Source: Arenicellales bacterium
GTDB lineage: Bacteria > Pseudomonadota > Gammaproteobacteria > Arenicellales > Poriferihabitantaceae
Reading direction: 5' to 3'
DNA length: 64,000 nucleotides
Assembly: GCA_965231905.1 (NCBI GenBank)
Contig: CBDDOO010000002.1
Coordinates: forward strand, 138,192 to 202,191
In this document: in pieces, positions 16,687-62,063 of the stretch
How positions within the stretch are numbered: position 1 is the stretch's first letter
Layout: each line of letters opens with the position of its first letter
Notes under the pieces: generated by a model
What the model was told of the DNA's origin: nothing
The model's input: only the letters and a program-made list of their open reading frames with translations
Databases searched by the model: none
Made by a program: the position numbers and the translations under genes

Positions 16687-16780
16687 GGATGGATTTGACT
16701 GTAAACTGTCATATAATCCTGTAAGAGATAATGATATCTGAATCCTTGACAAGGGTTCCGAGAGAACTTGTTACAATGAT

Positions 16781-16881
<101 letters not shown>

Positions 16882-17022
16882 GATTCTGTGCGGTATCTGG
16901 CGGCGGGTTCGAAGGCTCTGGTCCGTTCTGCCCGCTTGAGTTTTTGTTTTCCGCCGCTCGCGCAACGGCGCTCTCGTCGCGCCGCCTTTGTATGTGCGGC
17001 GCGGTCTTCGCCCCGTTTGAGG

Positions 17023-44307: not shown

Positions 44308-45123
44308 ATGCCAGAGCTTCCTGAAGTCGAAACAACCCTGAATGGAATTCGCCCCTTTTTGCAGGGGTTGAAGATTACCCGGCTTGATGTCCGACAACGA
44401 AATTTGAGGTGGCCGATTGCCGGAAACCTGGAAAGCGAGGTGAGCGATTCCGGGGTCGTCTGGTTGCAACGAAGGGGAAAATACATCCTGATCCACCTGG
44501 AGCGGGGCGGATTGATTGTTCACCTCGGGATGTCGGGTTCCATGAGGGTATTATTGAATGACGAGTCACCGGGCCGACATGACCATTTCGATATTATTAA
44601 CCAGCATGGACAGATCATTCGATACCGCGACCCCAGGAGATTCGGTTGCCTGCTCTACACACCGGACGATCCGTTGCAACATCCGAGATTGGTCAACCTC
44701 GGTGTCGAGCCGCTCAGTGACGATTTCACCGGACAGGGTTTGTACCGATTGTCCAGAAAACGGACTGCCCCGATCAAGTCATTCCTGATGGACGGTCGGA
44801 TCGTCGTTGGAGTGGGTAATATCTATGTCAGTGAGGCGTTGTTCCTGGCTGGAGTCAGCCCGGTTCGGCAATGCGGGAAAATATCCCTGAGTCGTTACCG
44901 GTTATTGGCAGAGGCCATCCGGACCGTCCTGATGAGAGCGCTCAGGCAGGGAGGGACGACCTTGCAGGATTTTGTCGGAGCGGACGGGGAGCCGGGATAC
45001 TTCACGCAATCCTTGTCCGTCTATGGGCGGGAGGGTGAAAAATGCCTGAAATGTCCAGCCACAATCAAAAGGCGGGTGATCGCCCAAAGGTCCACATTTT
45101 ACTGCCCGAAGTGCCAGACCTGA
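44308..45123 (+). CDS. mutM: formamidopyrimidine-DNA glycosylase
   Basis: 271 aa. MPELPEVETT N-terminus and a C-terminal zinc finger CLKC...FYCPKCQT. Confidence 0.93.
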   Translation: MPELPEVETTLNGIRPFLQGLKITRLDVRQRNLRWPIAGNLESEVSDSGVVWLQRRGKYILIHLERGGLIVHLGMSGSMRVLLNDESPGRHDHFDIINQHGQIIRYRDPRRFGCLLYTPDDPLQHPRLVNLGVEPLSDDFTGQGLYRLSRKRTAPIKSFLMDGRIVVGVGNIYVSEALFLAGVSPVRQCGKISLSRYRLLAEAIRTVLMRALRQGGTTLQDFVGADGEPGYFTQSLSVYGREGEKCLKCPATIKRRVIAQRSTFYCPKCQT

Positions 45124-45130
45124 CAGCCGG
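45096..45130 (+). repeat. 35-bp direct repeat, copy 1 (attL-like; last 28 nt of mutM including the stop, plus 7 nt)
   Basis: ATTTTACTGCCCGAAGTGCCAGACCTGACAGCCGG. 32/35 identical to 57043-57077. Confidence 0.85.
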
Positions 45131-45167
45131 GCCCGGCCGATTTGATTATTTCTCCCCAACGCATGTC

Positions 45168-45187
45168 ATTCCCGCGGAGGCGGGAAT
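45168..45187. repeat. GC-rich hairpin ATTCCCGC-GGAG-GCGGGAAT
   Basis: Perfect 8-bp stem read directly. Single copy in this window. Confidence 0.5.
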
Positions 45188-45273
45188 CTACAACCGATGC
45201 GCACTGACCGGTCATATCGTAGAAACAACCCTTTGTGGTTGTCCGATTTACATCAGGATGTCCACCATCAAGG

Positions 45274-46164
45274 TTACAGTTTTTCGGGGTCTGGCAACCT
45301 GGACAATATAATTCCCCCCAAAGTGATACATACCGACCCAATAATAACCGGCATCCCCAATTCTTCTCCGAACAGGAAATATCCGAGTAACGCGGCAAAA
45401 ACTATCCATGTGTAATTGATCGGTGTAACCAGGGCAACGTCTGCCAACTTATAGGCTATTACCCAACAATACTGGGCAGAAATTGCAATCGGCCCGAGTA
45501 AAATCATGAAAACCAGTTCCCCGATACCGGGGGTGTGCCAATTATAAAATGCCGGAACAGCCATGATAAATATCGAGAAAAAGTTTACATACAAAAGAAT
45601 AGTCAGCGGTCTTTCAGTAAATGTAAAAACTTTAATCAAAAGGCTTTCCACAGATAGCAAAAACGCGGCAAACAAAGCTAACCACAGGCCTATGCCCAGG
45701 TTTTCGAACAAAACTCCTTCGGTGGACCCGTAGACCACAATACAGGCTCCCATGCCGCAGAAAAAAGCTCCTGCCCATTGTATTTTTCTTACCTTCTCTC
45801 CCAGAAACAATATGGATAGCAGCATGGTTATTAATCCATCCGTTAATCCCAGGGCGGTGACATCTGCAATTGGTGATATGACCCCGGCATGTATGATGCA
45901 TACCCCGCCCATTGAGCCGCAAAGAGATCGGAGAAAATGATAGTGTGGACGCTTGCTGGAGTACTTTTTCAGACCTGAATCTTTTGAATTGGATCGCTTT
46001 ACCAGCACAACAATTGCGACCGTGAAAAATCCACTGACAAAACGGATAAACATGATTTGAAATGCTGATATTTCCCCACCAGTCAACTTTGCTGAAGCAT
46101 AGACCAGAGTAAACAACAGGGTGCCGAGCAGACCCCAGATTATTGCAGTTACTCCGTTGTTCAT
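45274..46164 (-). CDS. DMT-superfamily (EamA-like) transporter
   Basis: 296 aa, about 10 hydrophobic segments with duplicated EamA-like halves. GC is lower than in the neighbouring core genes. Confidence 0.75.
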   Translation of the reverse strand: MNNGVTAIIWGLLGTLLFTLVYASAKLTGGEISAFQIMFIRFVSGFFTVAIVVLVKRSNSKDSGLKKYSSKRPHYHFLRSLCGSMGGVCIIHAGVISPIADVTALGLTDGLITMLLSILFLGEKVRKIQWAGAFFCGMGACIVVYGSTEGVLFENLGIGLWLALFAAFLLSVESLLIKVFTFTERPLTILLYVNFFSIFIMAVPAFYNWHTPGIGELVFMILLGPIAISAQYCWVIAYKLADVALVTPINYTWIVFAALLGYFLFGEELGMPVIIGSVCITLGGIILSRLPDPEKL

Positions 46165-46253
46165 TATTGAGCGCCTTGAGCGTTTTCCAATCCAGAGATG
46201 AGCCTGAGGGGGCAGTATTTTGTGAGTCTATTGATCGACATTGAGAGTGGTTG

Positions 46254-47510
46254 TCAGGCGGCGTGACTTTGGGATTTGTTAAAAGATAGAAACAGTTTGT
46301 TGCGGGCTTTGTTGAGTCTTCGCGCGGCTTCATTATCACTGTATTTGTGAGCGAAGTCATCGAGTATTTTGAGTGTGATTCCGGATTTGAGATATTGCTG
46401 TGCATGGGGCAGGGAACGGAGTTTCTGGTACGGAGTCTGGATCAGTGAGTCCGGGTATTTGCGGATGCGTTTTCCCTGATTGTTGATTTCTTCCTTTGCG
46501 AACAAGCAGGGTCGGTGATAGTTCAGGTAGGGATTGAGGTCGTTTGTGAGGAAGTGGTTGACGGGTTGAGCGAAGCGCTGTGAGATGTGTTCGTATCCCA
46601 GATGCTTGCGGATGACGGAGCCGTTCTTGCCTTCGACCAGGGCGTTGTCATTGCTCTGTCGGGGACGGGATTTGGTTTGTTCGATCTGGAGTTTTTGCAG
46701 GAGTTTAGCGACTTGTCGATTGATATACTCTGAACCGTTATCGGAATGGAACCCCTGGAGCGTGAAGGGGAAGGCATCCAGGAGTTGATGCAGAGCCGGG
46801 ATGAGATAGCTTTCGGAGATTCTCTGTACACAGACCACGGCCTGCATCTGGGTGACTTCATCGACAGCATTGATGTGATACAGTCCCTTGATGCCGTCCT
46901 GATCGCCCTGATGGACGGTATCGACGCGCAAGAAGCCGGGACGGCCATCGGGTCTGGGTTTGCGTCGCTCCCCGATTCGCACGGGCGTATAGCGGGTCTT
47001 TTGGAAGTGTCGTCTCTGGCGCTGGTAGGAATCCGAGTGGCGCAGGTTGTACAAGTGTCCATTGGAGATGGCGGCCAGTCGCCGGTATCGGGTATCGCCG
47101 AATACCGAAAAAGCCCGTTCACACAGTTTCCGGGTGGCCGGGCCGGACAGGTTGCCGTGCAGGGTATCGGTTTCCACCAGTAAAGCCACATCTTCCGGGG
47201 TATAACGTCGACAGAAGGCATTGGCGGGTCGCCCCCGGCGATCCCGAATGCGGCCACTATCGCGGTATTGGCGGATCAGCCGGGTGATCTGGGCGCGGGA
47301 TAAGCCACTGACCTTCTCCAGGTAGGCTTTCACCACACCCCGGTCGGCCTTGCTCAATGCGCCATAACGCAACTGCCGCAGGCTGTCACAAATCCACGGA
47401 TAGGACTCCTCGCGGGACTGGGGTTCAAAATCAAAAGTAGTGGCTCCGTTCAAAAACGAACGAATCTCCTCCACCGTCTGTAAACGCTGGCTGTGTAATT
47501 TCACGATCAT
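46254..47510 (-). CDS. DDE transposase/integrase with rve (retroviral-integrase-type) core; IS family unresolved
   Basis: 418 aa. N-terminal HTH-like region and a DD(35)E triad (VDTVHQGD, FHSDNGSEY, NALVEGKN). Possible short inverted repeats: GAGAGTGGTTGTC (46243-46255) and GGACAACTCTCC (47592-47603). Confidence 0.75.
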   Translation of the reverse strand: MIVKLHSQRLQTVEEIRSFLNGATTFDFEPQSREESYPWICDSLRQLRYGALSKADRGVVKAYLEKVSGLSRAQITRLIRQYRDSGRIRDRRGRPANAFCRRYTPEDVALLVETDTLHGNLSGPATRKLCERAFSVFGDTRYRRLAAISNGHLYNLRHSDSYQRQRRHFQKTRYTPVRIGERRKPRPDGRPGFLRVDTVHQGDQDGIKGLYHINAVDEVTQMQAVVCVQRISESYLIPALHQLLDAFPFTLQGFHSDNGSEYINRQVAKLLQKLQIEQTKSRPRQSNDNALVEGKNGSVIRKHLGYEHISQRFAQPVNHFLTNDLNPYLNYHRPCLFAKEEINNQGKRIRKYPDSLIQTPYQKLRSLPHAQQYLKSGITLKILDDFAHKYSDNEAARRLNKARNKLFLSFNKSQSHAA

Positions 47511-47997
47511 CCTCCGATGATCCCAAAATCAGCCCCTTCAAACTCATCTCCCGTTGGAAATACAGCTTATCCTTCAGGCTCATCTTCCATTGGACAACTC
47601 TCCTTGTATGATAATTGTCAGTAATATAATACTATTATAAATTTTTATGCACGTTATATTTTATATAATAATTACTCTTATTATTCTTTTTCCCAATGCT
47701 CGGTATCATATTTATGCTTCTTTTTGATGTCTGGGAACTGATCGGAGAGAGATTTTAAGTTATGCCCTGATCGGGTTCTTTATTTCATTCTTTGAATAAA
47801 TTCTCAGAATAGACGAAACCGTTCCAGATTATGGGTTGGTCGCAAAGTGATCTGCGACCCGTAAAAACATGAAAATAGGTGGGTGCTTGACCAAGAGAAT
47901 TCAGGCGATGGCATTAATTCAAAGTGAAAACAAATTAAAAAGTACTAAGTGTGCTAGAGATAGCACAAACAAAAATTTTTAACCTGAGGGAATAGCT

Positions 47998-48189
47998 ATG
48001 GAAACACTTAAAAAAAGTAGCAAAAAGCCTACAATTGAAAACGGCAAACTCGATAGGCGCAGTAAAGTACGTATTACGGTAGATCTTACAGAAAAAGAAC
48101 ATAAAGCACTAAAAATCCATGCAGCAACAAAGGGAGTAACTAGTAGCACAATTATCCGTCGGTTGCTTCGAAAATACTGCAATCAGTAA
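47998..48189 (+). CDS. ribbon-helix-helix (CopG/ParG-like) DNA-binding protein
   Basis: 63 aa. Basic N-terminal tail, then RITVDLTEKEHKALKIHAATKGVTSSTIIRRLL (beta-strand, helix, helix pattern). Confidence 0.55.
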   Translation: METLKKSSKKPTIENGKLDRRSKVRITVDLTEKEHKALKIHAATKGVTSSTIIRRLLRKYCNQ

Positions 48190-48307
48190 TTCAGTAGAAT
48201 TTTGCAAGAAGTAAAGACTAAGTGCTATTAACAATACTTAGAAAAATAACCCATATATTTTTTAGGGGGTTACATAGAATGGCAGATGAACTAAAGGAGA
48301 GAGTTAA

Positions 48308-49065
48308 ATGAAACTATTGCCTGTCATTGATTCAACTATTCTAAAACTATTGACCAAAGATGTAAGTAAGATATTTGAGCTATCAAATGCATTTGGTTCT
48401 CCCATCCATATCCTGTTCCCACAAAACTTTTGTAATAACATCCTTTCTTTTAAGAATGTATTTGCAAAAAACAATGTAAATGGCTTGGTTTATTTTGCGG
48501 CGAAAGTGAATCGCTCAAATGTGTTCGTTAAAGAATCATTTAAAACGAAAATAGGTCTTGATGTTGCAAGCGAAAACGAGTTAAGAGCCGCCCTCAGCAT
48601 CGGAGTAAAAGGAAAAAATACCTGTATGTCTGGACCAATTAAAGATAAACCGTTTTTGAATCTTGGTATTAACGTCAACTCAACAATATCAATAGATTCG
48701 CTAGAAGAACTCGAGATCATATATTCGGTTGCGGATTCTCGGTCTTGTGAAAATGAGATCTATGTTTTGTTGAGATGGGAGGGCACTTCCTCCAATGCGA
48801 GTCGATTTGGGATGAATGAAAAGGAGATACTTCAAGCAATTAGGTCAATTAGGGCGAATAGTTCTAAAAAAGTAATACTCAGAGGATTCCACTTCCATAT
48901 ATTCGGATATTCTATAAAAGAGAGAGTGTCCAGTATTGAAAAACTATTAAGCTACATGGACTACTCCAAAGAGCAAGGACTTAGTCCATTTATGATTGAT
49001 ATTGGAGGTGGTTTCCCAGTCAACTACTTGGATCAGGAAAGCTGGGACAAATATCTAGTGCTTAA
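48308..49065 (+). pseudogene. fold-type III PLP-dependent decarboxylase (Orn/DAP/Arg decarboxylase family), 3' part lost
   Basis: YFAAKVN (PLP lysine context), HFHIFGY and IDIGGGFP. The reading frame is cut at the TTAA target of IS5 copy 2. Nine further in-frame nt (TCATGATGA) survive at 50266-50274. Confidence 0.8.
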
Positions 49066-50261
49066 GGAAAGTCTGAACAATACGAGTTTTGGGGATTTTG
49101 GGTAGTCATTTTTGTAAATCCGGGATATGAGTGGGTCTGAAAGACAGAATGGCCCGGAATCAGTGAGCGGGAGCGGGGAAATACAAGCATTCTCCCCCTC
49201 TTTTCATTTTTCAGGCGTACGTAGCCTGCAGTTTCAACCGCCTTTGTCTCAACAGTACTTTCTTCGCCATCACCAGATTGCTTAAGGCACAGGCCACAAC
49301 CAGTCGATGCGTGTTCTTCTCCAGCCCCCGGTAACGAACCCGGGTAAAACCGAACTGCCGCTTGAGAATACCGAACTGATGTTCCACCTTCGACCGTATC
49401 CGGGACTTGGTTCGATTCTTCAAGCGCTCCTTCTCCGTCAATTTGCGGTAGCGCGTCCCCTTCGAATGAGTGAAATCCTTCGCCTCCGGCGCTACCTGTG
49501 AAATCACCGCCTTCTGACCCGTATAGGCCGAGTCTCCCCATACACGGGTCTCTTTCCCGTGCAGAAGTTCCGGCAGAACCTGTGAATCATGAACATTCGC
49601 CGGCGTAGCCACCACCGAATGAATCAGCTTGCTGCGACTGTCCACACCGATATGCGCCTTCATACCAAAGTACCATTGCTGCCCCTTGCGCGTCGAGTGC
49701 ATCTGGGGGTCTCGTTTCTTCTCCCGGTTCTTGGTCGAACTCGGTGCGCAGATGATGCTGGCATCCACGATCGTACCCCGATTCACCTTCAGTCCGTTCT
49801 CACCCAAATATTCATTGACCAGTCCGAACAATCGTTCCCCCAGGTTATGCTTCTCCATCAGATGACGAAACTTGCAGATCGTGGTCTCGTCGGGAGCCGG
49901 CTCCCGACCCAGGTCTATGCCCACAAACCGGCGCATCGACAACGAATCGTACAACGCTTCCTCGGCAGCCGGGTCCGAAAGACTGAACCAGTGTTGCAGA
50001 AAGTGAATCCGAAGCATCCGGTCTATTCCAATCGGCCTGCGGCCTGCCCCTTGCGGTTTGGGATAAAAAGGTTCGATGACTGCATTCAACTCCACCCACG
50101 GAATGATTTGCTCCATCTCATCCAGAAAACGCTCCTTGCGCGTCTGTTTCTTGTATTTGTCAAATCCAGCTTCGGAAAAAGTACTCTGGCGCATCGGAAA
50201 TATCTCCAGTCAGTATGAAGTACAAAAATTATACAATAGAAACTGATTAATCAGAGATTCC
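49066..50261 (-). mobile_element. IS5-family insertion sequence, copy 2 (1196 bp)
   Basis: Same ends as copy 1. TTAA on both sides (49062-49065 and 50262-50265). Confidence 0.9.
49211..50194 (-). CDS. IS5-family DDE transposase
   Basis: The 327-aa protein is identical to copies 1 and 3. Three nucleotide differences were seen, all synonymous. Confidence 0.92.
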   Translation of the reverse strand: MRQSTFSEAGFDKYKKQTRKERFLDEMEQIIPWVELNAVIEPFYPKPQGAGRRPIGIDRMLRIHFLQHWFSLSDPAAEEALYDSLSMRRFVGIDLGREPAPDETTICKFRHLMEKHNLGERLFGLVNEYLGENGLKVNRGTIVDASIICAPSSTKNREKKRDPQMHSTRKGQQWYFGMKAHIGVDSRSKLIHSVVATPANVHDSQVLPELLHGKETRVWGDSAYTGQKAVISQVAPEAKDFTHSKGTRYRKLTEKERLKNRTKSRIRSKVEHQFGILKRQFGFTRVRYRGLEKNTHRLVVACALSNLVMAKKVLLRQRRLKLQATYA

Positions 50262-50274
50262 TTAATCATGATGA

Positions 50275-51470
50275 GGAAAGTCTGAACAATACGAGTTTTG
50301 GGGATTTTGGGTAGTCATTTTTGTAAATCCGGGATATGAGTGGGTCTGAAAGACAGAATGGCCCGGAATCAGTGAGCGGGAGCGGGGAAATACAAGCATT
50401 CTCCCCCTCTTTTCATTTTTCAGGCGTACGTAGCCTGCAGTTTCAACCGCCTTTGTCTCAACAGTACTTTCTTCGCCATCACCAGATTGCTTAAGGCACA
50501 GGCCACAACCAGTCGATGCGTGTTCTTCTCCAGCCCCCGGTAACGAACCCGGGTAAAACCGAACTGCCGCTTGAGAATACCGAACTGATGTTCCACCTTC
50601 GACCGTATCCGGGACTTGGTTCGATTCTTCAAGCGCTCCTTCTCCGTCAATTTGCGGTAGCGCGTCCCCTTCGAATGAGTGAAATCCTTCGCCTCCGGCG
50701 CTACCTGTGAAATCACCGCCTTCTGACCCGTATAGGCCGAGTCTCCCCATACACGGGTCTCTTTCCCGTGCAGAAGTTCCGGCAGAACCTGTGAATCATG
50801 AACATTCGCCGGCGTAGCCACCACCGAATGAATCAGCTTGCTGCGACTGTCCACACCGATATGCGCCTTCATACCAAAGTACCATTGCTGCCCCTTGCGC
50901 GTCGAGTGCATCTGGGGGTCTCGTTTCTTCTCCCGGTTCTTGGTCGAACTCGGTGCGCAGATGATGCTGGCATCCACGATCGTACCCCGATTCACCTTCA
51001 GTCCGTTCTCACCCAAATATTCATTGACCAGTCCGAACAATCGTTCCCCCAGGTTATGCTTCTCCATCAGATGACGAAACTTGCAGATCGTGGTCTCGTC
51101 GGGAGCCGGCTCCCGACCCAGGTCTATGCCCACAAACCGGCGCATCGACAACGAATCGTACAACGCTTCCTCGGCAGCCGGGTCCGAAAGACTGAACCAG
51201 TGTTGCAGAAAGTGAATCCGCAACATCCGGTCTATTCCAATCGGCCTGCGGCCTGCCCCTTGCGGTTTGGGATAAAAAGGCTCGATGACTGCATTCAACT
51301 CCACCCACGGAATGATTTGCTCCATCTCATCCAGAAAACGCTCCTTGCGCGTCTGTTTCTTGTATTTGTCAAATCCAGCTTCGGAAAAAGTACTCTGGCG
51401 CATCGGAAATATCTCCAGTCAGTATGAAGTACAAAAATTATACAATAGAAACTGATTAATCAGAGATTCC
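50275..51470 (-). mobile_element. IS5-family insertion sequence, copy 3 (1196 bp)
   Basis: Same ends as copy 1. Left flank is ATGA and right flank is TTAA, so there is no matched target duplication. Confidence 0.9.
50420..51403 (-). CDS. IS5-family DDE transposase
   Basis: Identical to the copy 1 protein. Confidence 0.92.
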   Translation of the reverse strand: MRQSTFSEAGFDKYKKQTRKERFLDEMEQIIPWVELNAVIEPFYPKPQGAGRRPIGIDRMLRIHFLQHWFSLSDPAAEEALYDSLSMRRFVGIDLGREPAPDETTICKFRHLMEKHNLGERLFGLVNEYLGENGLKVNRGTIVDASIICAPSSTKNREKKRDPQMHSTRKGQQWYFGMKAHIGVDSRSKLIHSVVATPANVHDSQVLPELLHGKETRVWGDSAYTGQKAVISQVAPEAKDFTHSKGTRYRKLTEKERLKNRTKSRIRSKVEHQFGILKRQFGFTRVRYRGLEKNTHRLVVACALSNLVMAKKVLLRQRRLKLQATYA

Positions 51471-51474
51471 TTAA

Positions 51475-52031
51475 GAGTTCAAAACCCAAATCTCCATGTA
51501 ATAGCCGTTGATCATAATCTGAGCGTATTATTTGGACCGACGTCAGATAGTGTCTCAGAGCTTTGTAGGGAGAGTTATAACAGCCTACTCGGAATGGGAG
51601 CAGATATAGTGTCTCAAAACTTAGACCATACACAGTGCGATGAAGTACATTGGATCCCTGTTTCAAAAATGGTGGAAGCTGTTCATTATATTCACAGGAA
51701 ATATGGAGTATTAGTTGGGCCTACGGGTGGTGCGGCTCATGTGGCTGCGGATTGGTATGCAAAAACAAATCCAGGAAAGCGAGTATTTACGGTATTCCCG
51801 GACCATGGTGTGAGATATGCAGACACTATTTTCAACTATCACTGGCTAAGAAGACATAATGTAGATTTGGAGAGGAAGTATAGCAACCCAACTACGGTAA
51901 TTTGTCCAACTAAAGTGGGTGCAGGATGGGAACGATTCCCTTGGGGACGTCGTACATATAAAGAAATACTTGGACACTCTCCAGTACCAAGGTCCGGTAA
52001 TAGGAAAAACTTTGGCAAGGATGCTGCTTAA
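51475..52031 (+). pseudogene. C-terminal fragment of a fold-type II PLP enzyme (CysK/CBS/SbnA-like)
   Basis: The frame is open from the IS junction: RVQNPNLHVIAVDHNLSVLFG...GMGADIVSQNLD...DEVHWIPVSKMVEAV...GVLVGPTGGAAHVAA...VFTVFPDHGVRY. The N-terminal half, including the PLP lysine, is absent. Confidence 0.75.
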
Positions 52032-52057
52032 CTAGGAATAATTTTGAGGAGAAGAAA

Positions 52058-52786
52058 ATGCGAAACAGTTATCTTAGCGCAGAACAGCTCTATAACAAAC
52101 TAAGCGAGATATATAAGTCAACTGATGAGGATTGGAATGAATGGGTAAGACAAACCCAGACAATACAGGAAGTTTTGCTCAGAGAATACTGCCCAAACGT
52201 AAGAACCATACTCGACTGTGCGGCAGGCATAGGTACACAGTCGTTAATTTACTCTAGTATGGGATATGAGGTTACAGCAACCGATATCTCGGAGAAATCC
52301 TTGGTTAAATTAGAGAACGAGGCCCGAAACAAGAATCTAGATGTCGTCACAAAAAAATGTGAATGGTCGAATTTGGCAAATATTTTCTCGAGGGAATCTT
52401 TTGATTTGGTAGTTTGTTTTGCGAATTCATTGGCCCATTGTCCAGATAATAAGTCGCTCGTTGAGGCAGTTAGCAATATGTCTAGAGTACTTAAAAAAGA
52501 TGGGAAGATCCTGTTAAGTGTCAGAGACTACGACGTAATAATTAAAGAAAGAATAACCGGAACACCAGCAGATAGAAAAGAGGCAGATATTTATTATCAG
52601 GAATGGGAATGGGTGGATAATCTACGTTACCATGCAGAGTGGTTTATACGCGCAGAATCTCAAGGAAAAACACTAATGAGAGCAATATGCAAAGAAGAAA
52701 TAATTGAGATAGGAAAATTATTGGATCTACGAGTGAAATTTAGAAAAGATCTTTACGAAATGGTAGTTGTTATACTAACTAAGTGA
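52058..52786 (+). CDS. class I SAM-dependent methyltransferase, glycine/sarcosine N-methyltransferase-like
   Basis: 242 aa. ILDCAAGIGTQSL (motif I), VTATDISEKSL, DLVVCFANSLAHCPD and VLKKDGKILLSVRDYD resemble GNMT-type enzymes. AT-rich. Confidence 0.65.
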   Translation: MRNSYLSAEQLYNKLSEIYKSTDEDWNEWVRQTQTIQEVLLREYCPNVRTILDCAAGIGTQSLIYSSMGYEVTATDISEKSLVKLENEARNKNLDVVTKKCEWSNLANIFSRESFDLVVCFANSLAHCPDNKSLVEAVSNMSRVLKKDGKILLSVRDYDVIIKERITGTPADRKEADIYYQEWEWVDNLRYHAEWFIRAESQGKTLMRAICKEEIIEIGKLLDLRVKFRKDLYEMVVVILTK

Positions 52787-52898
52787 CCTGGTTATTTTCG
52801 TTTGTCTAGTGATTTCGTATAGACTACTAAACACGACGGCCCACTTCTGTGTAAATGTTGTCGCATAGATTTTTTGTTAGAGTAATCGGTAACAGTAT

Positions 52899-54053
52899 AT
52901 GAGGCAACTTGATGAGACAGATATATGTGCAGAACTTAGTTGGTGTCAAGTCTCTCAATATCTAAAGTGGAAAACCGTCAAGGATGGATATTTGCCTATG
53001 GATAGTGGAGAGCATGATTATAGACCTGCCGATCAGGTAAAAAAGTACTTGTTGGAAGCTCTTGATCGCAATCAGATGTCATATGGTCCTTTAACAGGAC
53101 TAGAAGAAGCAATATCTTGTACGACCAAATTACAATCACATCAGCATGATTATCTGTTATCTCCAGAGTGTTTCACATTTTGCCCATCGGCCACAGTAGC
53201 GTTGGCTCTTTGTTCTGGGGCGTTACTAGCACCGAATGATCATGCTATATTCCTAGGATCCCCAATCTATTATGCCCTAATTAATCCAGTGCTCTCCCTG
53301 GGGGCTGATACAACTATTGTGCCGTTTACAAAAAGCGGGGATGTGGATATCGGAAACTTGGAAGGTTCAATTAGAACTAATACAAAAATAATATTTATTA
53401 CAAACCCACATAGCCCGACTGGAGAAACGTATAGTTTAGAAGATCTGCGAAAAGTTGCGTCAATATGTGAAAAAAATAATATAGTCGTAATATCAGATGA
53501 AGTATATGAACATTTTGTTATGGAAGGGCAACATACGCCTTTATACAAGAGTCATGATTATTTTCTAAAGAATGGCATAGTGATCAGTAGCCTTTCTAAG
53601 TGTTTTAATGTTACAGGCGCAGGTGCAGCATTTTTAGTTGCCAATCCACATTTAATAAAGGCTATCGAAAATTATTATGGTGGTCCGATTTTCATGACTT
53701 CGATCATTGCTCAACTAATTACACAAGGCTGTGCCGAATTTTCAGAATGGATTCCAGAATTTGTTAATAAATTAAAAATATCTAGAGATAAAATAGTACG
53801 AGGCCTTTCTAATCTTCCAAGAATAAATTTTATATCGCCTGATGCAGGAATGTTTATTTGGATCACAATTGATTACAAAAATTCAAAACCGGTATGCGAG
53901 GCGTTAGCTGAACAAGCTAAAATTAAAGTCTATCCATCTACATATTTTGCTGGTGGTGAACCCAACCAAGTACGAGTGAACTTTGCTACACACCCAGAAG
54001 TAATTGAAGTATTTTTAGAACGCTTTGGAATTTGGTTGACATCTCGTACGTAA
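52899..54053 (+). CDS. class I/II PLP-dependent aminotransferase
   Basis: 384 aa. FITNPHSPTGE, ISDEVYEHF and SSLSKCFNVTGAG (SxSK PLP lysine). The last ~6 codons lie inside the inferred end of the adjacent IS. Confidence 0.8.
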   Translation: MRQLDETDICAELSWCQVSQYLKWKTVKDGYLPMDSGEHDYRPADQVKKYLLEALDRNQMSYGPLTGLEEAISCTTKLQSHQHDYLLSPECFTFCPSATVALALCSGALLAPNDHAIFLGSPIYYALINPVLSLGADTTIVPFTKSGDVDIGNLEGSIRTNTKIIFITNPHSPTGETYSLEDLRKVASICEKNNIVVISDEVYEHFVMEGQHTPLYKSHDYFLKNGIVISSLSKCFNVTGAGAAFLVANPHLIKAIENYYGGPIFMTSIIAQLITQGCAEFSEWIPEFVNKLKISRDKIVRGLSNLPRINFISPDAGMFIWITIDYKNSKPVCEALAEQAKIKVYPSTYFAGGEPNQVRVNFATHPEVIEVFLERFGIWLTSRT

Positions 54054-54826
54054 ACTTTTGTAAGCTTCCCCGAAACTCAATACAACCGTATTGCCTCGCT
54101 ACTCCCGAAGCAGCGAGGCAATGTCAGTTTTTCGAATCTGCAAGTGCTCAACGGCATTCTGTATGTGGCAGAGCACGGCTGCAAGTGGCGTGGTCTGCCG
54201 GAGCGGTTCGGCAATTGGCACACGATCTACACACGAATGAACCGATGGTCGAAGAACGGCGTTCTGGACCGGGTGTTCGAACAACTGCAGCGAGACCAGA
54301 TCGTTCGAATCAAAGTCGAGGCGTTTGGTCTCGACAGCGCCAGCATCAAGGTACACCCGGACGGCACGGGCGCCCGAAAAAAAACGGAGCGCAATCCATC
54401 GGCAAGTCCCGTGGCGGCTGGAACACCAAGCTTCATATGGTTGCCGCGGATGCTCGAACAGCGACTGCCTTCACGCTCTCCCCCGGTAACGCCCATGATG
54501 CCCCGGAGGGACGAAAGCTCCTGAGCCGACTGGAGAAACCATCGAACAGCCCGGCGCTGATCATGGATCGGGCATACGAAGACGATGCCACTCGCCAGTG
54601 GGTACTCAACTGCGGATTCATTCCTGTGGTTCCACCAAAGAGCAACCGGGTCGCTCCCTGGCAGTACGACCGGGAACTCTACAAGCGGCGAAACGAGGTA
54701 GAGCGGTTGTTCCGGCGGCTCAAAGGCTTCCGCAGGATCTTCTCACGCTTCGACAAACTCGATGTCATCTTCCTCGGATTCATCGTTTTCGTGCTCATCA
54801 TTGATTTATTACGATAGTGTTAACAC
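54035..54826 (+). mobile_element. small IS5-family element (IS427/IS1031-like); boundaries tentative
   Basis: Abrupt AT-rich to GC-rich switch near 54040. Imperfect terminal repeats: GTTGACATCTCGTACGTAAA on the left and, on the reverse complement of the right end, GTTAACACTATCGTAATAAA. Confidence 0.5.
54144..54817 (+). CDS. IS5-family transposase OrfAB; needs a -1 frameshift at the A8 run (54377-54384)
   Basis: Frame A reads ...VLNGILYVAEHGCKWRGLPERFGNWHTIYTRMNRW...IKVHPDGTGARKK. Frame B continues NGAQSIGKSRGGWNTKLHMVAAD...IMDRAYEDD...NEVERLFRRLKGFRRIFSRFDK. No canonical start codon precedes the conserved LPETQYNRIASLLP segment (54069-54110). Confidence 0.7.
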
Positions 54827-54896
54827 GCCCTAGTAGAGACTCCCGGTAGAATAACCGCAGGAGGTACTCGTGAGAAAATCGCACGGTTCTATGAGG

Positions 54897-55571
54897 GACG
54901 GGGCGCGACAACGGGAGAGTATAAAGATTTCTGTGTAAATGGTCGTGGATCATGTCAGACAGGCACCCTGTCACCGTACAGGATAATAAACTGATTGAGT
55001 GCAGCCTTCCAGTCCCGGATCGGCATGGTCCATTTTTTCGATGCGTTTTTCAATCCCAGGTACAGTAATTTCCGGATGGTGTCATCATGGGGAAAGGCTC
55101 CTCGCCCCTGGATGATCTTCCTCAGACGCTCCCAGTTCCGCTCCCAGCCCGACGTGGTCGCCGAATAGTGCTCACCCCAGTGTCCGGCAAACGCACCCAG
55201 GGCAACTCTGACGGCCTCCACCGTCGGTGCCGTGTAGACCGCCCGCAGGTCAGCGGCTACCCGCTTGCGATCTTTCCAAGTGACGCACCTCAAGCTGTTG
55301 CGGACCTGATGCACGATACACAACTGAACCTGGGTATGCGGATACACGGTCTCAATGGTTTCCGGCAGTCCCTTCAACCACGCATTTTCGAAGTTGATTC
55401 ATCAGGCCGTCCAGACCCATAACCGCTTCGGTATTGCCCTTGAAATCTTCGAGAAGCTCGTCGAGTAGGAATTCTTGTTTTTCAGTCAGCTTGGTCATCT
55501 TTTCCCCTATGGGAAGTATAATGGATGACCATTTACACAGTTTTGTTTACACCCTCGGCAACGGCCCCGTC
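54897..55571 (-). mobile_element. internally deleted IS256-family element (675 bp)
   Basis: Terminal inverted repeats GACGGGGC...CTGTGTAAATGGTC are present at both ends (54897 onward, and the reverse complement of 55571 going inward). Only about 180 codons of transposase remain. Confidence 0.75.
54955..55497 (-). pseudogene. IS256-family (mutator-type) transposase remnant
   Basis: The N-terminal ~38 codons (MTKLTEKQEFLLDELLEDFKGNTEAVMGLDGLMNQLRK) are joined out of frame near 55380 to the C-terminal 140 codons (GLPETIETVYPHTQVQLCIVHQVRNS...). The catalytic middle is missing. Confidence 0.8.
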
Positions 55572-55579
55572 TACTCGGA

Positions 55580-56683
55580 CTACCGATGAAACAAATCTTT
55601 GATGGATAGGTTGGAGTAATACTTCGGTAAACTTTCAACTATTAGTCTATTATTTCGATCTAAATACTTTTTATCCATTGTTGTTTGAGCCCACCTGATA
55701 ACACGATCAATAAATGGGGTATCAACCCCTAACAAGACTGCAACATATTTAATAAAACACAACCCAAATGGAATGTCATCCTTGAAGTAACGATGGTTTG
55801 CGTCTGAATGAATGTTTCTATCAACTGTTATATTTTGTAACGACTCCGAATTGGCAATACATTGATGCATGTTGCTACCGCTTATGCCCCATCGATTGTT
55901 CCATTCAGAGAGGATCGAAGAGTTGTTTATATTTAACCTGTTATCTAATTCATTTAATGCGTCAACAACTTTTATTCTTTCATTGTCCAATTCCTCGACA
56001 GCCGCACCTGACATGTACGCTACGTTTCCATAAAAGTAAGGGCTTGATGAGTGTACTAAATATCGACCATAGCAAATCCCAGGATGCAACAAGCTGTTAG
56101 ACGGAAAGAAGCTTTCAGTCGAAAATGCTATAAGTCTAATATTTTTGGATTTGTCAGTATGTATGCTTCGAATCCACTCTAAGTGATCATCATAAATATT
56201 AGAGTTTTTGCGTATAGCCAAGTCACAGCTCTGATCTCCTGTATTGTTAACCCGCTCGCCATATTTCACTATACGACACACTCATGGAATTTGGACAAAT
56301 GCAAAACATGGATATCCATAACCAATTGTAAAATCCACCATTTTGTCAAATCTTGCTTGACCAAATATGGTGCCAACCAGAGTATTTTTTGAAATAAAGG
56401 GTGCCAAATTCGATAATATCTCGATTTGAACATGTACCGGGCTACATATAAAAACAACATTCGCAGATTTCACATGTTTGTAATCATTTGTTACTTTAAA
56501 AAATTCTCCATTAAAACACTTGTCAGTGGGTGTATAGCACATATCTACTCCGTAATCGGTCCATTCATTCGGACGGCGTGTAATTAATATCGTATTAATC
56601 TTGCTTCGCGTCAATAAATTAACTAGGACATGTGCACTGTTACCACCGCCAACAACAGCTACAGTTAAAGGGCCAGATTCCAT
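55580..56683 (-). pseudogene. opine (octopine/nopaline-type) dehydrogenase with an in-frame TGA
   Basis: ORFs 56282..56683 and 55580..56281 are contiguous in one frame, separated only by TGA (56282-56284). N-terminal Rossmann VAVVGGGNSAHVL. C-terminal HRYFKDDIPFGL...GVDTPFIDRVIRW resembles the Octopine_DH domain. Confidence 0.7.
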
Positions 56684-57042
56684 AAATGGTTCCGAAGCTA
56701 TGTGATTGGCAAAATGAATTTTTCGTGAATTTGTAAGATCATGTCGGATTAAATGTGAACAATACCCATAGTCATGAATATATTGATTAACGATTCGAGA
56801 GAAATTACATGGGTGAATTTATAGTGTTAAAAACACTTCTACAGCTAGCAAAAAACAAATAACACCAACAAAACTAAACCGCAAATTGTTACTGCATTAC
56901 TGAGCTCTCGACTTGTTAAAGAACCAGAACTAAATGATTTGGTAAATAATTAACTGATACCGCCAGTATCTGTTATGAGACAAGTAACGGACTTACTTCG
57001 AGGAAGGTAAGCCCCAATTCCGCGATAGAAGTGTTTTGGTAT

Positions 57043-57077
57043 ATTTTACTGCCCGGAATGTCAGACCTGACAGCCGG
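57043..57077 (+). repeat. 35-bp direct repeat, copy 2 (attR-like; mutM 3'-end look-alike)
   Basis: ATTTTACTGCCCGGAATGTCAGACCTGACAGCCGG. It still reads IFYCPECQT-stop. Confidence 0.85.
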
Positions 57078-59728
57078 ATATCCCGTGCGGAGGGGACTCT
57101 CTCGGTGGCGCCACACGCTCAGATGGCGCCATAATCGAGTCATGCATCGGGTTTATGAATACCGTCGACAAATCGAAAGAAATGGCAAAAAAGCTGCAAG
57201 CAGAAACAGTACGAAATTGGGTGCAAAAGTGGATGAAAGACAATCGCGCTGATCAGGAGACAGCCCATTACCAACTTGAGCATCTTGATGCATCCAGCAA
57301 TGTTACTGCCCGGGAAAATGCAAAAAGCCGACTGGCCGCCGCCAATTCAGAGAGTCCTCATGCTGTCCTTAATGTGGGCATCTTCGGGGAGGGAACAGAT
57401 GCCCCATCACTCAGTGCCGTAGCCTTTCTTGAATCAAGAAAGAGCCCGATTGATGTAATCCAGGCGGTTGGACGAGCGATACAGGCCGATGGGTGTACGA
57501 TAGGCGCCCTCATCATGATGAACGCCGCCATGCTTCACCAACGTATTGCAACCGGGAAATGGTTGCCCGGAATAACAGGCATGGCTGAAATCAAGAATAA
57601 AGCAAATATCGCCAAGCAGATATTGCGGCAATGGCACATGATTTCGATACATGACTTTCTTCCCATTCTGAAGCCGGCGATTGAAGTGATTGAGAAAATT
57701 GAGGACACCGGAAAATTGGCTGGACTTGAACGCGCGTTGCATCACATTACTACCGAGGCGGAGCGTATCGCTGAGACTTATGCGGATATGGGCGCCGACC
57801 ATGCTGGACTGTTATTCAACAAGGTCATGGGAAATCAGGATTCTGACGGCGCTTTTTTTACTCGGCCAGTCGCGGCCGCAATCGCTGCTCGCATCACACT
57901 CGATATGCTCGGCGATACGAAGTGGAGCAACCCGGATAGCTGGAAAAACCACAAGATCGTGGACCTTGCTTGCGGTAGCGGTACTTTGCTGGCTGCCACC
58001 ATGACTGACATGAAACGTCGTGCTAAAGAACAAGGCGCTGACGAAGCATCCCTTGCTCAGCTCCAGAAGATTGCTGTTGAAGAAACTATCAAGGGGTTGG
58101 ATATCAATCCGGTATCGATGCAATTGGCGGCTTCCCAGCTAACGGCGGGCAATCACGAAATACGCTATCGCCGCATGGGGTTACACCTGATGCCTTATGG
58201 GCATGATGCCAGCAGTCCCTGGAAAGTGCCTGTGGGAACCCTTGAGCTTATTGGGCAACGATCTATTGTGCCCAAAGGTAACGATCTATTCCGGGAAGAT
58301 CGGGTGGCTGAATCAAACATTGTGTGGGATCAACCAAACGATTCTGTTTTTGAAGATGCCGTGGAAGCGGTCAAGGATGCAAGTATCGTCATTATGAATC
58401 CACCTTTCACCAATAGATCGAAGATGGGGGAGAAGTTCGCCAAAGGCATCCAGAAGAAAATGCGGGAAAAAACGGACCGTCTGGAACAGCTTCTGATCGA
58501 CAACGACATGGAAATGGTAAATTTTATGGACAAGAATTCAATTGGTCCTCTATTCGTGGCTCTCGCTGACCGGTGTGTAAACTCCTCAAGCGGAATTTTG
58601 GCAATGGTGAATCCAACTATAGCTTTGGTCAGCACATCTGGACAGCATGAACGTGTAATTCTCGCGCAACGTTTCCACATACACACTGTAATTTCCTGCC
58701 ATCTGCCGGGGCAGATCAATCTGAGTCAGAATACCTCAATCAATGAGAGCATAGTAATTGCACGGCGGCCCAATGGTCAAAGAGTGCCCACAAAGTTCAT
58801 AAATCTTGACAGATTCCCGAAAAACGAAGCAGAAGTTGAAGACCTGCATCAAGGTCTTATGGATTGCTCTACCGGACTTATTCCAAATGGTTGGGGAGAA
58901 GTATCCGAATGGCCGATAGAACGGATTGAGGCAGGCGATTGGAGTGCTGCAATCTGGCGCTCCCCTACTCTTGCCGAATCAGCGACCACATTCGCGAATC
59001 ATGACCGGTTAATCAGGTTGCGCGACCTGGGGATGACACCCGCGGCCACAGGCCAACAGTTGCGAGGCGCCTTCGAGCCATCGACATCTGATTCGCTCGG
59101 TAGTTTCCCCATACTTAAATCCAAATCGGCGGACGCGCAAGTAAAAATTCAGAGCACACCGGACGAATACTGGATTCCGAAGAAAAAGTCCGAATTCGGG
59201 TTCACAGCCAAGGATGATGGATGCCCGAAGGTAGACAGAATTCTGCAAAAGGCCGGTTATCTGCTGATCACCGCTGGTCAACGTAACAGTTCGGCTCGAT
59301 TGACTGCTGTCGCGAATGATGAAAAATATGTGGGTAATGGCTGGATGCCGGTTACCGGGCCAGACCCGCAGGAAGCGAAGGCTATCGCAATTTTTCTGAA
59401 TTCGACAGTGGGGCGACTGCAAATCATGAGAAAGCCGGGTAAGACACTGGAATTCCCTGTATACAGCGCTGCGGAGACGAAAGAAATCAGAGTGCCAGAT
59501 CTCCGTGAAAAGAATATTCTTCGCATTCTTCTCAACTGTTGGGAGCGCACATCAGGGATGGTTGTCCCACAATTTCGAGACGGAGAATGTGATGTACGGA
59601 GGATTTGGGATGAGGCGGTAGCCGAAGCTCTGGGTTGGGACGCTGATGAACTGGCAAGGTTGCGTCAATTACTACACAGAGAGCCGCATGTTCGCGGACT
59701 GGGGTATAATCAATATGGCGATGGGTAG
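57071..59728 (+). pseudogene. 5'-truncated SF2 helicase / N6-adenine methyltransferase fusion (type ISP-like restriction-modification protein)
   Basis: The tracked ORF is 57155..59728, and the frame is open back to 57071. It starts inside helicase motifs V-VI (VLNVGIFGEGTDAPSLSAVAFLESRKSPIDVIQAVGRAI), with no Walker A or DExH upstream. MTase motif I is VDLACGSGTLLAA and motif IV is VIMNPPF. Confidence 0.65.
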
Positions 59729-59755
59729 GAGGATAGAGGTCTTGCGCCACTATCT

Positions 59756-60364
59756 CTAATCCGGGGAATGTTGATCAATCTCTGTATGAAGTTTGTTCAA
59801 GGAGGATAATACCTTGTCCCTCAATTCCAGAGCTATGACTCGCGTAAGTTTTTCCACATCTATGCCCTCATCATACGCCACTTCGTGTATTTTGTTATAC
59901 AGATCAATATGATTCTCCTTTAATTCCTGTAGCAGTTCTTCTCTGGATAATGAAAAACAGTATTCTTGTATCTGGTACGCATTAAGCTCTTTGACAGCGT
60001 GAGTTGCTCTGTCTATTTGCATTTCTGCTATCTCTGAAGCGCTGATTTTTTGAGATAGATTTTTTCCATAATCAGTCAAGGATATCGGACTGGTGACTCT
60101 TTCAAGTGGCTCTCCGGGTAGTCGTTTGAATATCTCTTTTATATCCTCACTGATTCTATCCAATTTATTGGATAGACCTGTTGTAAGAGTTTCCAGCCCA
60201 CCCAATCGGGTTTCTGTCTTCTCTATCCTGTGCTCTATCCCGGAATGCCATTTTGATACGCGCCATAGTAAAATCGCTCCGCCGACAATTACCCAGGCTA
60301 AAGGATTCCCGATAATTTCGAGTATTATTGAAAGGGAACCTGAATCCTGTTGAGTAATTCTCAT
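59756..60364 (-). CDS. hypothetical membrane-anchored coiled-coil protein
   Basis: 202 aa. One N-terminal TM segment (LAWVIVGGAILLW), followed by heptad-like charged sequence. Low GC. I recognise no family. Confidence 0.5.
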   Translation of the reverse strand: MRITQQDSGSLSIILEIIGNPLAWVIVGGAILLWRVSKWHSGIEHRIEKTETRLGGLETLTTGLSNKLDRISEDIKEIFKRLPGEPLERVTSPISLTDYGKNLSQKISASEIAEMQIDRATHAVKELNAYQIQEYCFSLSREELLQELKENHIDLYNKIHEVAYDEGIDVEKLTRVIALELRDKVLSSLNKLHTEIDQHSPD

Positions 60365-60753
60365 CTTATCTCCTTAATCTGTTCAATCTGAGTGAATTGT
60401 CAATGGCGCGATCTGTTAACCGAAACATTGATTGACAAAACCTGATTTTTTGGCAATGTCTATACTACAGTCAGTCAGATGATAACATGATGAGCAAGAG
60501 AACCGCCAAAACATTATCCCTGAATGAGACAAGTCCCGCACAAGCCGGAATCCACAGTTATCGGGCAGGCGCGGAGACCCGCCCTGCATCGTTCGGGCAG
60601 GAGTTAGTTACTAAGCGTTTGGACAACACTCTGGTTTTTGACGGAATCCCCGGAAAAGACTATAATCCGGGAGCTTTCCACCATGTGGCGGCCTTATGAC
60701 GCGCACATGCCCTGACTTTCAGATAATTTTATATTCTCAGTGACGAGGACATT

Positions 60754-60936
60754 ATGGCTGTACAAAAAAATCGTAAAACACCATCAAAGCGTGGTATGCG
60801 CCGCTCTCACGATGGTCTCAAAAAACCAACCGTGTCGATTGATCCGGTTACCGGAGAAGAGCACAGGCGTCATCATATTACTGCCGATGGCTATTATCGC
60901 GGGAAGAAAGTGGTCGAGATCAGAGCTGGAAGTTGA
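60754..60936 (+). CDS. rpmF: 50S ribosomal protein L32
   Basis: 60 aa. [20 protein letters not shown]. Confidence 0.95.
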
Positions 60937-61010
60937 CATTCCATTTTGTACGCGGAACACCTTGCCAGGGTGGCTTGTGTCGTAACTCCGGCATTTACAG
61001 CTTCCGGTAG

Positions 61011-62024: not shown

Positions 62025-62063
62025 TGCAGTTTACCGGCCATTAGTGATCGCACTCACGGACAG

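Follow-up and report, generated by a model that had tools for sequence, protein, structure and literature searches.

Between about 47.6 and 57.0 kb of the 64,000-nt stretch of Arenicellales DNA analysed here (the window, meaning that stretch at its full length), there is a low-GC block of enzyme genes. It is probably what is left, no longer functional, of an operon that the host, a sponge-associated gammaproteobacterium, acquired horizontally and that belongs to a very rare, uncharacterised family of gene clusters for small-molecule biosynthesis. The core conserved in this family comprises an EamA transporter, an SbnA-like beta-replacement enzyme dependent on pyridoxal phosphate (PLP), a class-I aminotransferase-fold enzyme, a glycine/sarcosine-type N-methyltransferase and a LysA-like fold-III decarboxylase. 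Beyond this core, the intact operon found on an environmental contig, L001, has an EctB-type diaminobutyrate transaminase, an SbnB-like NAD dehydrogenase and a SET-domain methyltransferase. The cluster is uncharacterised, yet it is built from known enzyme families, and the copy in the window is a degraded one. No description of such a cluster was found in the literature, in agreement with an earlier, sequence-only reading of this DNA, according to which the full gene set matches no known pathway.

The low-GC block and its genes

Gene families were assigned with a list of open reading frames (ORFs) and a Pfam scan, to which NCBIfam and PDB matches were added. The families named in the sequence-only reading (ribbon-helix-helix protein, fold-III decarboxylase, SbnA/CysK-like enzyme, GNMT-like methyltransferase, aminotransferase, opine dehydrogenase and EamA transporter) were all recovered by Pfam where it had placed them (Table 1). 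The AT-rich character that it had given to the block is equally clear. The coding parts have 37% GC, the cluster genes having a GC content of 0.37–0.43 and a GC content at third codon positions (GC3) of 0.27–0.36, against 53% GC and a GC3 of 0.61–0.64 in the neighbouring core genes. The GC3 of the insertion sequence (IS) elements in the window is 0.64–0.70.

The block lies within an insertion of 15,490 bp between mutM and plsX. The region is recognised as inserted because, in a sponge-associated Arenicellales metagenome-assembled genome (MAG; L014, OY760176.1), the 3' end of mutM is about 115 bp from sequence that matches the window from 60633 onward, with L014 1–508 equivalent to window 44635–45142 and L014 624–3011 equivalent to window 60633–63021. 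From 61011 the core genome continues with plsX, fabH and fabG, and PlsX is 94–95% identical to that of MAGs labelled Ca. Poriferihabitaceae or Arenicellales, the former being a family name that has been applied to MAGs recovered from the sponge Phakellia ventilabrum (PMC12859430). The empty site in L014, the deviant GC3 and the IS elements, together with the relaxase and MobC genes beside the L001 operon, are the marks of a genomic island.

The EamA transporter of the window is 40–43% identical to the cluster-linked EamA proteins of L001, L006–L008 and L010, and is a true member of the cluster. The decarboxylase ORF reads on to 49105, with the gene proper cut at 49065 by an IS5-family element (copy A) and 9 more of its nucleotides surviving at 50266–50274; the PLP-lysine motif AAKVN is kept, and the remaining protein is 36% identical to residues 1–210 of the 405-aa L001 decarboxylase. 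What is left of the SbnA/CysK-like gene (Pfam family PALP) corresponds to residues ~177–354 of the 361-aa L001 homologue and has lost the catalytic lysine region. It is 45% identical to the L001 protein and 53% to that of L006, and its Pfam match, in the ORF at 51594–52031, is weak and covers profile positions 240–295 only.

In the methyltransferase the motifs are conserved. Its best NCBIfam match is the glycine/sarcosine N-methyltransferase NF051855, at 66 bits against a cut-off of 350 that is not reached, and its best PDB match is GSMT 5gwx (E=2e-15), with GNMT also among the best; the likeness to GSMT and GNMT is read here as a family-level resemblance only. The aminotransferase-fold enzyme belongs to a rare subfamily, with the motifs M[AD]SGEHDF, NPHSPTG, SxxKC and YGGP, and is about equally like archaeal aromatic and aspartate aminotransferases, PatB C-S lyases and GntC. 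It keeps the PLP lysine and all of the family-invariant residues, and is essentially full length, its C-terminus aligning with the ends of its homologues and its TAA stop lying at 54051–54053. The ribbon-helix-helix protein is not conserved in the related loci, L001 having a LysR regulator instead, and may be a regulator or a leftover of a mobile element. When the EctB, SbnB-like and SET proteins of L001 were compared with the whole window by tblastn, no remnant of them was found.

Insertion sequences and loss of the pathway

The cluster is dead in this genome and the pathway inoperative, because the 3' half of the decarboxylase gene, the 5' half of the SbnA-like gene and the interval between them have been lost, the opine dehydrogenase gene is interrupted by a nonsense codon, and the exporter is cut off from the promoter region by an IS element. 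The window copy is a dead locus and so is without a current phenotype. It does document the erosion of a sponge-symbiont genome, in which accessory metabolism has been destroyed by IS elements.

Copies A and B of the IS5-family element are 99.7% identical to each other. Copy B has no target duplication and its flanks are in two different genes, with codon ~256 of the decarboxylase on the left and residue ~177 of PALP (L001 numbering) on the right; there has therefore been an IS-associated deletion between those points. This indicates that the decarboxylase 3' half, the PALP 5' half and any genes between them were taken out by the deletion. In L001 the interval between the decarboxylase and PALP genes holds the SbnB-like and SET genes, and these may have been removed in the same event. 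A third copy of this IS5-family element, 99.7% identical and with a TTAA duplication, is present at 2895–4088, which indicates a recent IS expansion in the genome.

The IS427-like element that follows the aminotransferase gene is itself truncated at its 5' end, where there is no start codon, and the IS256-family remnant has both terminal inverted repeats and a partial transposase. Decay through several independent lesions had been proposed from the sequence alone, and the IS5 pair with its deletion, the IS256 remnant and the nonsense TGA bear this out; the IS with the rve-domain transposase is an extra lesion that had not been listed. The proposal that an IS inactivates the 3' end of the aminotransferase gene was overstated, as the enzyme is essentially complete and the adjoining IS is the truncated partner.

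An intact relative of the cluster

L001 is contig 1495 of Logan SRR27762948, 52 kb in length, and was found through the best relative of the window methyltransferase (41% identity). Its genes are in the order EamA, class-III aminotransferase, decarboxylase, OCD/mu-crystallin dehydrogenase (333 aa), SET protein (141 aa), PALP, class-I aminotransferase (389 aa) and methyltransferase (248 aa), with a divergent LysR regulator and adjoining relaxase and MobC genes. The relaxase has no match in the PLSDB plasmids. Five of the window genes match their counterparts in L001 with 33–45% identity, and L001 is the intact version that had been expected to exist elsewhere. As an intact operon of about 8 kb borne on a mobile element, it is usable for heterologous expression.

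The class-III aminotransferase of L001 scores above the equivalog cut-off for EctB (TIGR02407; 582.8 against 552.2 bits) and is classed from this score as a diaminobutyrate-forming, EctB-type transaminase. This enzyme is shared with ectoine biosynthesis, for which the EctA acetyltransferase and the EctC ectoine synthase are absent from both L001 and the window.

The best family match of the L001 PALP protein is SbnA (TIGR03945), at 179 bits against a cut-off of 350 that is not reached, and its best PDB match is SbnA 5d87. The PLP lysine (Lys47) and Arg132 of SbnA are conserved, with Tyr152 replaced by His and Ser185 by Gly. Arg132 is taken by us to be the O-phosphoserine site of SbnA, and Tyr152 and Ser185 its glutamate-binding residues, roles that were reportedly described by Kobylarz and colleagues in 2016. 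Because Tyr152 and Ser185 are replaced while the PLP lysine and Arg132 are kept, the comparison suggests that this enzyme would use O-phosphoserine as the electrophile and an amine other than glutamate as the nucleophile.

For the OCD protein the best PDB match is SbnB 4m54, with a score of 36 bits against the SbnB cut-off of 327 (TIGR03944), which is not reached; it is also matched by EutC of ectoine catabolism (E=3.5e-8). The fold-III decarboxylase of the cluster is closest to LysA. The SET proteins of L001, L004, L005 and L009 are members of PF00856 in which the NH and GEE..Y motifs, the latter with the catalytic tyrosine, are kept. The echo of diaminopropionate (Dap) chemistry noticed in the sequence-only reading, on the grounds of the SbnA-like enzyme and the decarboxylase, is real, and L001 has an SbnB-like gene as well.

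Conserved linkage and rarity

Homologues of the window genes are linked on six independent environmental contigs from different samples, with 33–53% identity and in varying order (Table 1). EamA, PALP, aminotransferase, methyltransferase and decarboxylase genes are associated on L001, L006–L008 and L010, and on L004, L005 and L009 the aminotransferase has a SET gene as its partner. The recurring aminotransferase-SET pair looks like a portable two-gene module, present on L004 and L005 within polyketide synthase/non-ribosomal peptide synthetase (PKS/NRPS) clusters. On L009 it is directly downstream of a dioxygenase, the C-terminus of which has gamma-butyrobetaine (BBOX), 2-trimethylaminoethylphosphonate (TmpA) and trimethyllysine (TMLD) dioxygenases as its best matches.

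L094 (2–3477) carries a more remote aminotransferase relative, which scores 295 bits with the family profile. It lies upstream of an unannotated 469-aa gene and genes for phosphoenolpyruvate (PEP) mutase and phosphonopyruvate decarboxylase, which is a phosphonate biosynthetic context. The surroundings on L009 and L094 hint at an aminotransferase that forms a primary amine for the SET enzyme to methylate.

Some of the relatives of the cluster may be decaying as well. On L006 a groEL C-terminal fragment (2763–2897) directly follows the aminotransferase, and the methyltransferase of L010 (558–1042) appears to be frameshifted or truncated.

Among 5.8 billion protein clusters, there are 9 relatives of the methyltransferase with E≤1e-5 and 7 of the aminotransferase, and with HMMER over 1.84 billion representatives some 6 close aminotransferase clusters, and about 14 more distant ones, stand above the generic aminotransferase background. 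The aminotransferase alignment found no relative in 185,579 species-representative genomes, from which the window's own genome was not retrieved either, and in the JGI metagenomes it found only L006, already identified. There is no relative in the PLSDB plasmids, where aminotransferase matches have at most 26% identity. Only methyltransferase homologues of at least 40% identity mark the cluster; the distant ones (31–33% identity), on L002, L003 and a JGI contig, are in unrelated neighbourhoods. The window has thereby led to a cluster family that is nearly absent from public data, being known from a handful of metagenomic contigs.

Table 1. Features of the cluster, its surroundings and its relatives; positions are in the window unless a locus is named
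Feature	Position	Strand	Description
mutM 3' end (real), FYCPKCQT-stop	45096-45130	+	First copy of 35-nt imperfect direct repeat
Insertion	45143-60632		15,490 bp, between mutM and plsX; empty site in L014 (OY760176.1)
EamA/DMT transporter	45274-46164	-	Intact ORF, 296 aa; Pfam EamA; divergent from operon
IS with rve-domain transposase	46196-47585	-	15-nt terminal inverted repeats; between EamA and AT-rich control region
AT-rich intergenic region	47586-47997		33% GC; presumed divergent promoter region
Ribbon-helix-helix (CopG-type) protein	47998-48189	+	63 aa; Pfam RHH_1 E=8e-5; weaker NikA and ParD matches
Fold-III PLP decarboxylase	48308-49065	+	N-terminal ~253 codons of ~405-aa protein; Orn_Arg_deC_N E=2e-19
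IS5-family copy A	49066-50261	-	Simple insertion in decarboxylase; TTAA target duplication
IS5-family copy B	50275-51470	-	Without target duplication (ATGA vs TTAA)
SbnA/CysK-like fold-II PLP enzyme (PALP)	51471-52031	+	C-terminal remnant; tblastn, in frame from 51471
GSMT/GNMT-like N-methyltransferase (S-adenosylmethionine-dependent)	52058-52786	+	Intact ORF, 242 aa; Pfam class-I methyltransferase
Class I/II aminotransferase-fold PLP enzyme	52899-54053	+	384 aa; Aminotran_1_2 E=9e-44
IS5-family (IS427-like) element	54054-54830	+	Two-ORF transposase, A8 slippery run; abuts aminotransferase stop codon
IS256-family element	54915-55556	-	Internally deleted; Pfam Transposase_mut positions 235-318 of 379
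Opine dehydrogenase pseudogene	55580-56683	-	367 codons, eukaryote-like type; Pfam Octopine_DH; convergent with operon
mutM 3' end (relic), FYCPECQT-stop	57043-57077	+	Second repeat copy; right border of low-GC block
L001 operon	L001 2615-10747		~8 kb, EamA through methyltransferase; intact, tightly spaced, one strand
L004 pair	L004 10001-11553		Class-I aminotransferase-SET; in PKS/NRPS cluster with HemN-like radical SAM, KAS III, thioesterase
L005 pair	L005 4325-5965		Class-I aminotransferase-SET; in PKS/NRPS cluster with HemN-like radical SAM, KAS III, thioesterase
L006			PALP-EamA-class-I aminotransferase
L007, L008			EamA-class-I aminotransferase
L009	L009 316-1934 (SET and aminotransferase)		BBOX/TmpA-like dioxygenase-SET-class-I aminotransferase
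L010			Class-I aminotransferase-methyltransferase-EamA

Proposed pathway and product

The family unites C-N bond chemistry of the SbnA/SbnB type, a SET enzyme and a second methyltransferase of amines, and a dedicated exporter. The analysis shows what the genes are, how they were damaged, that they were inserted, and that their linkage is conserved and the family rare. From the enzymes we infer an order of steps, substrates and a product, and the general outline is held with somewhat better than even confidence. A diamino acid or diamine would first be supplied, which in L001 would be the diaminobutyrate that EctB makes, perhaps after decarboxylation by the fold-III enzyme. O-phosphoserine would yield an aminoacrylate, to which the SbnA-like enzyme would add an amine that is not glutamate, giving a polyamino acid with a secondary amine, of the Dap or aza-lysine type. 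This would be remodelled by the aminotransferase and a secondary-amine dehydrogenase, SbnB-like in L001 and perhaps the opine dehydrogenase in the window, before the SET and GSMT-like enzymes N-methylate the amines and EamA exports the product. To judge from the enzymes, the product is most likely a diamino-acid or diamine compound that is formed through SbnA-type C-N coupling, N-methylated and exported; confidence in any specific product is low.

One such product would be a quaternary-ammonium or poly-N-methylated lysine-like metabolite (an 'aza-lysine' or a diamino-acid betaine), to which the intact members of the family may, rather doubtfully, provide an undescribed bacterial route. The diamine would come from EctB and the LysA-like decarboxylase and be joined to O-phosphoserine by the SbnA-type enzyme, the SET enzyme would act on a free small molecule rather than a protein, and the aminotransferase-SET pair would serve as a portable unit that forms an amine and then trimethylates it, and that PKS/NRPS clusters also borrow. 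SET enzymes make trimethyl-lysine. There is a precedent for the methylation of free lysine by a SET enzyme, for which PMC8085414 cites Trievel 2003. If it is true that the SET enzyme here acts on a free metabolite, bacterial SET-domain biology would reach beyond protein methylation.

The likeness to trimethylammonium metabolism, that is, to the BBOX and TMLD carnitine enzymes and the TmpA enzyme of 2-trimethylaminoethylphosphonate, is in the L009 dioxygenase that precedes the SET-aminotransferase pair, and in the PEP mutase and phosphonopyruvate decarboxylase beside the distant aminotransferase relative of L094. The cluster differs in that there is no such dioxygenase in the window or L001, and no aldolase or aldehyde dehydrogenase.

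Several points weigh against the reading of the block as a biosynthetic operon of this kind. The order of the pathway is conjecture, as no member of the family has a known product or enzyme activity. Every specific NCBIfam match except that to EctB is far under its equivalog cut-off, and the aminotransferase-fold enzyme, which also resembles C-S lyases and the GntC cyclodehydratase, may not transaminate. There is one full-length intact cluster only, the other relatives being fragments of 2–3 kb, and the EctB, SbnB-like and SET genes were never seen in the window, their former presence being deduced only from the gene order of L001.

The opine dehydrogenase

The opine dehydrogenase is a member of the Octopine_DH family (PF02317; 83 bits against a cut-off of 30) with conserved VGGGNSAH and HPGICYG motifs. 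On the minus strand, a TGA at 56282–56284 takes the place of a tryptophan codon (TGG to TGA) that is invariant in six homologues, the remaining frame being intact; this position is a few bases off from that given by the ORF list alone. The nearest relatives, with 51–53% identity, belong to two foraminifera, Bolivina argentea and Ammonia sp., and are followed by sequences on a picoeukaryote-like contig and from diatoms. A 31%-identical homologue has a eukaryotic neighbourhood (JmjC, zf-CHY, VKOR) without cluster genes.

The best solved relative is the octopine dehydrogenase of Pecten maximus (PDB 3c7a; profile E=6e-40, full length), of which the catalytic histidine and the Arg/Asp region are also conserved in the window gene. 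The only PDB entries matched by the clade profile are this enzyme and the Arthrobacter CENDH. Unlike the Pecten gene, that in the window is encoded in a bacterium, is low in GC and is a pseudogene, and its closest kin are foraminiferal, not metazoan. The presence of a eukaryote-type, foraminifera-like opine dehydrogenase in a sponge symbiont makes it a candidate for interdomain transfer, the alternative being contamination of the transcriptomes.

The gene may be a passenger, or may have taken the place of the SbnB-like dehydrogenase as a non-orthologous substitute. The chances appear even that it is an unrelated, eukaryote-derived gene that came to lie beside the operon and was never in the pathway, as would fit with its absence from L001 and L004–L010, its position on the opposite strand with an upstream region of its own, and its foraminiferal and other eukaryotic kin. 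Against this, it shares the unusually low GC3 of the operon, it is part of the same low-GC block, and once the IS elements are removed it is tail-to-tail with the aminotransferase gene. Moreover, the reactions of opine dehydrogenases and of SbnB/OCD enzymes are of one class and act on secondary amines (secondary-amine dicarboxylates), and replacement of an SbnB-like gene is plausible for that reason. A passenger would be compatible with a decayed biosynthetic operon and would touch only the 'opine' label.

Other readings and known systems

It is quite unlikely that the cluster made an opine-type or aminopolycarboxylate metallophore, like staphylopine and pseudopaline or like staphyloferrin B and EDDS. 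In such a pathway Dap from SbnA and SbnB would be trimmed by the decarboxylase and given a carboxyalkyl arm by the opine dehydrogenase, and the chelator would leave the cell through the DMT transporter. This would account for the co-occurrence in L001 of genes for an SbnA-like enzyme, an SbnB-like enzyme and a fold-III decarboxylase, for the cluster-linked DMT/EamA exporter and for the opine dehydrogenase with the same GC3 in the same block, and PMC9248904 cites EDDS and EDHA as using a Dap supply of the sbnA/sbnB type. However, as the sequence-only reading had noted, there is no gene for a nicotianamine-synthase-like protein or an NRPS-independent siderophore (NIS) synthetase in the window block, nor is there one in L001, and a C-N lyase gene is likewise missing from both. 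The two N-methyltransferases would cap amine ligands, and the glutamate-binding residues of SbnA are not conserved. No Fur or Zur box, on consensus boxes taken from other taxa, stood above shuffled controls in the promoter regions of the window and L001, and L001 is under LysR control with no TonB receptor or ABC importer nearby. The opine dehydrogenase itself is in none of the relatives and is of the Pecten type, with a clade profile that finds no structure of CntM, the staphylopine/pseudopaline dehydrogenase, in the PDB even at E≤10. On these grounds the 'opine-type' label, and with it the staphylopine/pseudopaline analogy, which the sequence-only reading had put forward, is not upheld.

The same differences are apparent from the known systems. 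The staphyloferrin B system of S. aureus (SbnA/SbnB/SbnH) is alike in its SbnA-like PLP enzyme, in the SbnB-like OCD protein of L001 and in its fold-III decarboxylase, but the cluster is without NIS synthetases (of the IucA/IucC type, none being in the window block or L001), citrate synthase or apparent iron regulation. It adds the EctB-type transaminase, the SET and GSMT-like methyltransferases and the special aminotransferase, and its Sbn scores are far under the equivalog cut-offs. The cnt loci (staphylopine, pseudopaline, yersinopine) also have an opine dehydrogenase-family gene and a DMT/EamA exporter in one block, but there is no gene here for CntK or the nicotianamine-synthase-like CntL, the latter being absent from the block ORFs and L001 genes. 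The window dehydrogenase, of the Pecten/foraminiferal type, is not conserved in the cluster family, no importer is present, and no Zur/Fur consensus box stood above shuffled controls.

The EDDS and EDHA clusters of Amycolatopsis presumably have a LysA-like decarboxylase and no NIS synthetases. By their description (Spohn et al. 2016, 2018, as cited in PMC9248904 and PMC4993170), with which the comparison was made, they are non-NRPS, non-NIS clusters with sbnA/sbnB-type Dap supply, whereas the cluster here has methyltransferases, including SET, and EctB, has LysR instead of Zur, and has no C-N lyase-type gene that was seen. The EDDS/EDHA model leaves the two methyltransferases unexplained.

A catabolic or salvage island is very unlikely. 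In that case EamA would import an amine, opine or ectoine-like solute derived from the host, a secondary amine would be split by the OCD protein or the opine dehydrogenase, with the PLP enzymes and transaminases passing the pieces on to central metabolism. Indeed, ectoine catabolism likewise combines a class-III diaminobutyrate transaminase, an OCD-family enzyme (EutC, which matches the L001 protein as given above) and a PALP-fold enzyme, LysR regulators are common in catabolic operons, and a sponge symbiont is exposed to host solutes. The two conserved methyltransferases are, however, biosynthetic in character, the transaminase scores as EctB, and the L001 PALP protein is of the SbnA/CysK type (179 bits) and not of the dehydratase type (~26 bits). 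That the aminotransferase-SET pair recurs in PKS/NRPS contexts also supports biosynthesis.

Finally, the suggestion that the genes were brought together by chance through IS activity, as the five IS elements or remnants in about 10 kb might imply and as the sequence-only reading had allowed if they were never found together elsewhere, is extremely improbable given their shared distinctive composition, and for the EamA, PALP, aminotransferase, methyltransferase and decarboxylase set it is refuted by the linkage of the same families, at 33–53% identity and in varied order, on six independent contigs.

Other features of the insertion and the window

The two mutM-end repeats that enclose the low-GC block agree at 32 of 35 positions. 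They were considered as simple attL and attR sites and rejected, as the native downstream sequence follows the first copy and not the second. Besides the low-GC cluster wreck, the 15,490-bp insertion contains a second accessory segment, with an 857-aa ORF (57155–59728, plus strand) and a 202-aa ORF (59756–60364, minus strand). The former starts within a helicase C-terminal domain and runs into an N6-adenine methylase domain, and looks like a truncated type ISP/IIG-like restriction enzyme; the latter has no Pfam match. Elsewhere in the window, an ORF of 1793 aa (16780–22161, plus strand) has Calx-beta as its only Pfam match and is in a stretch of 62–65% GC, against a window mean of ~53%. It may encode a giant surface or adhesin-like protein, and is possibly another acquired region.

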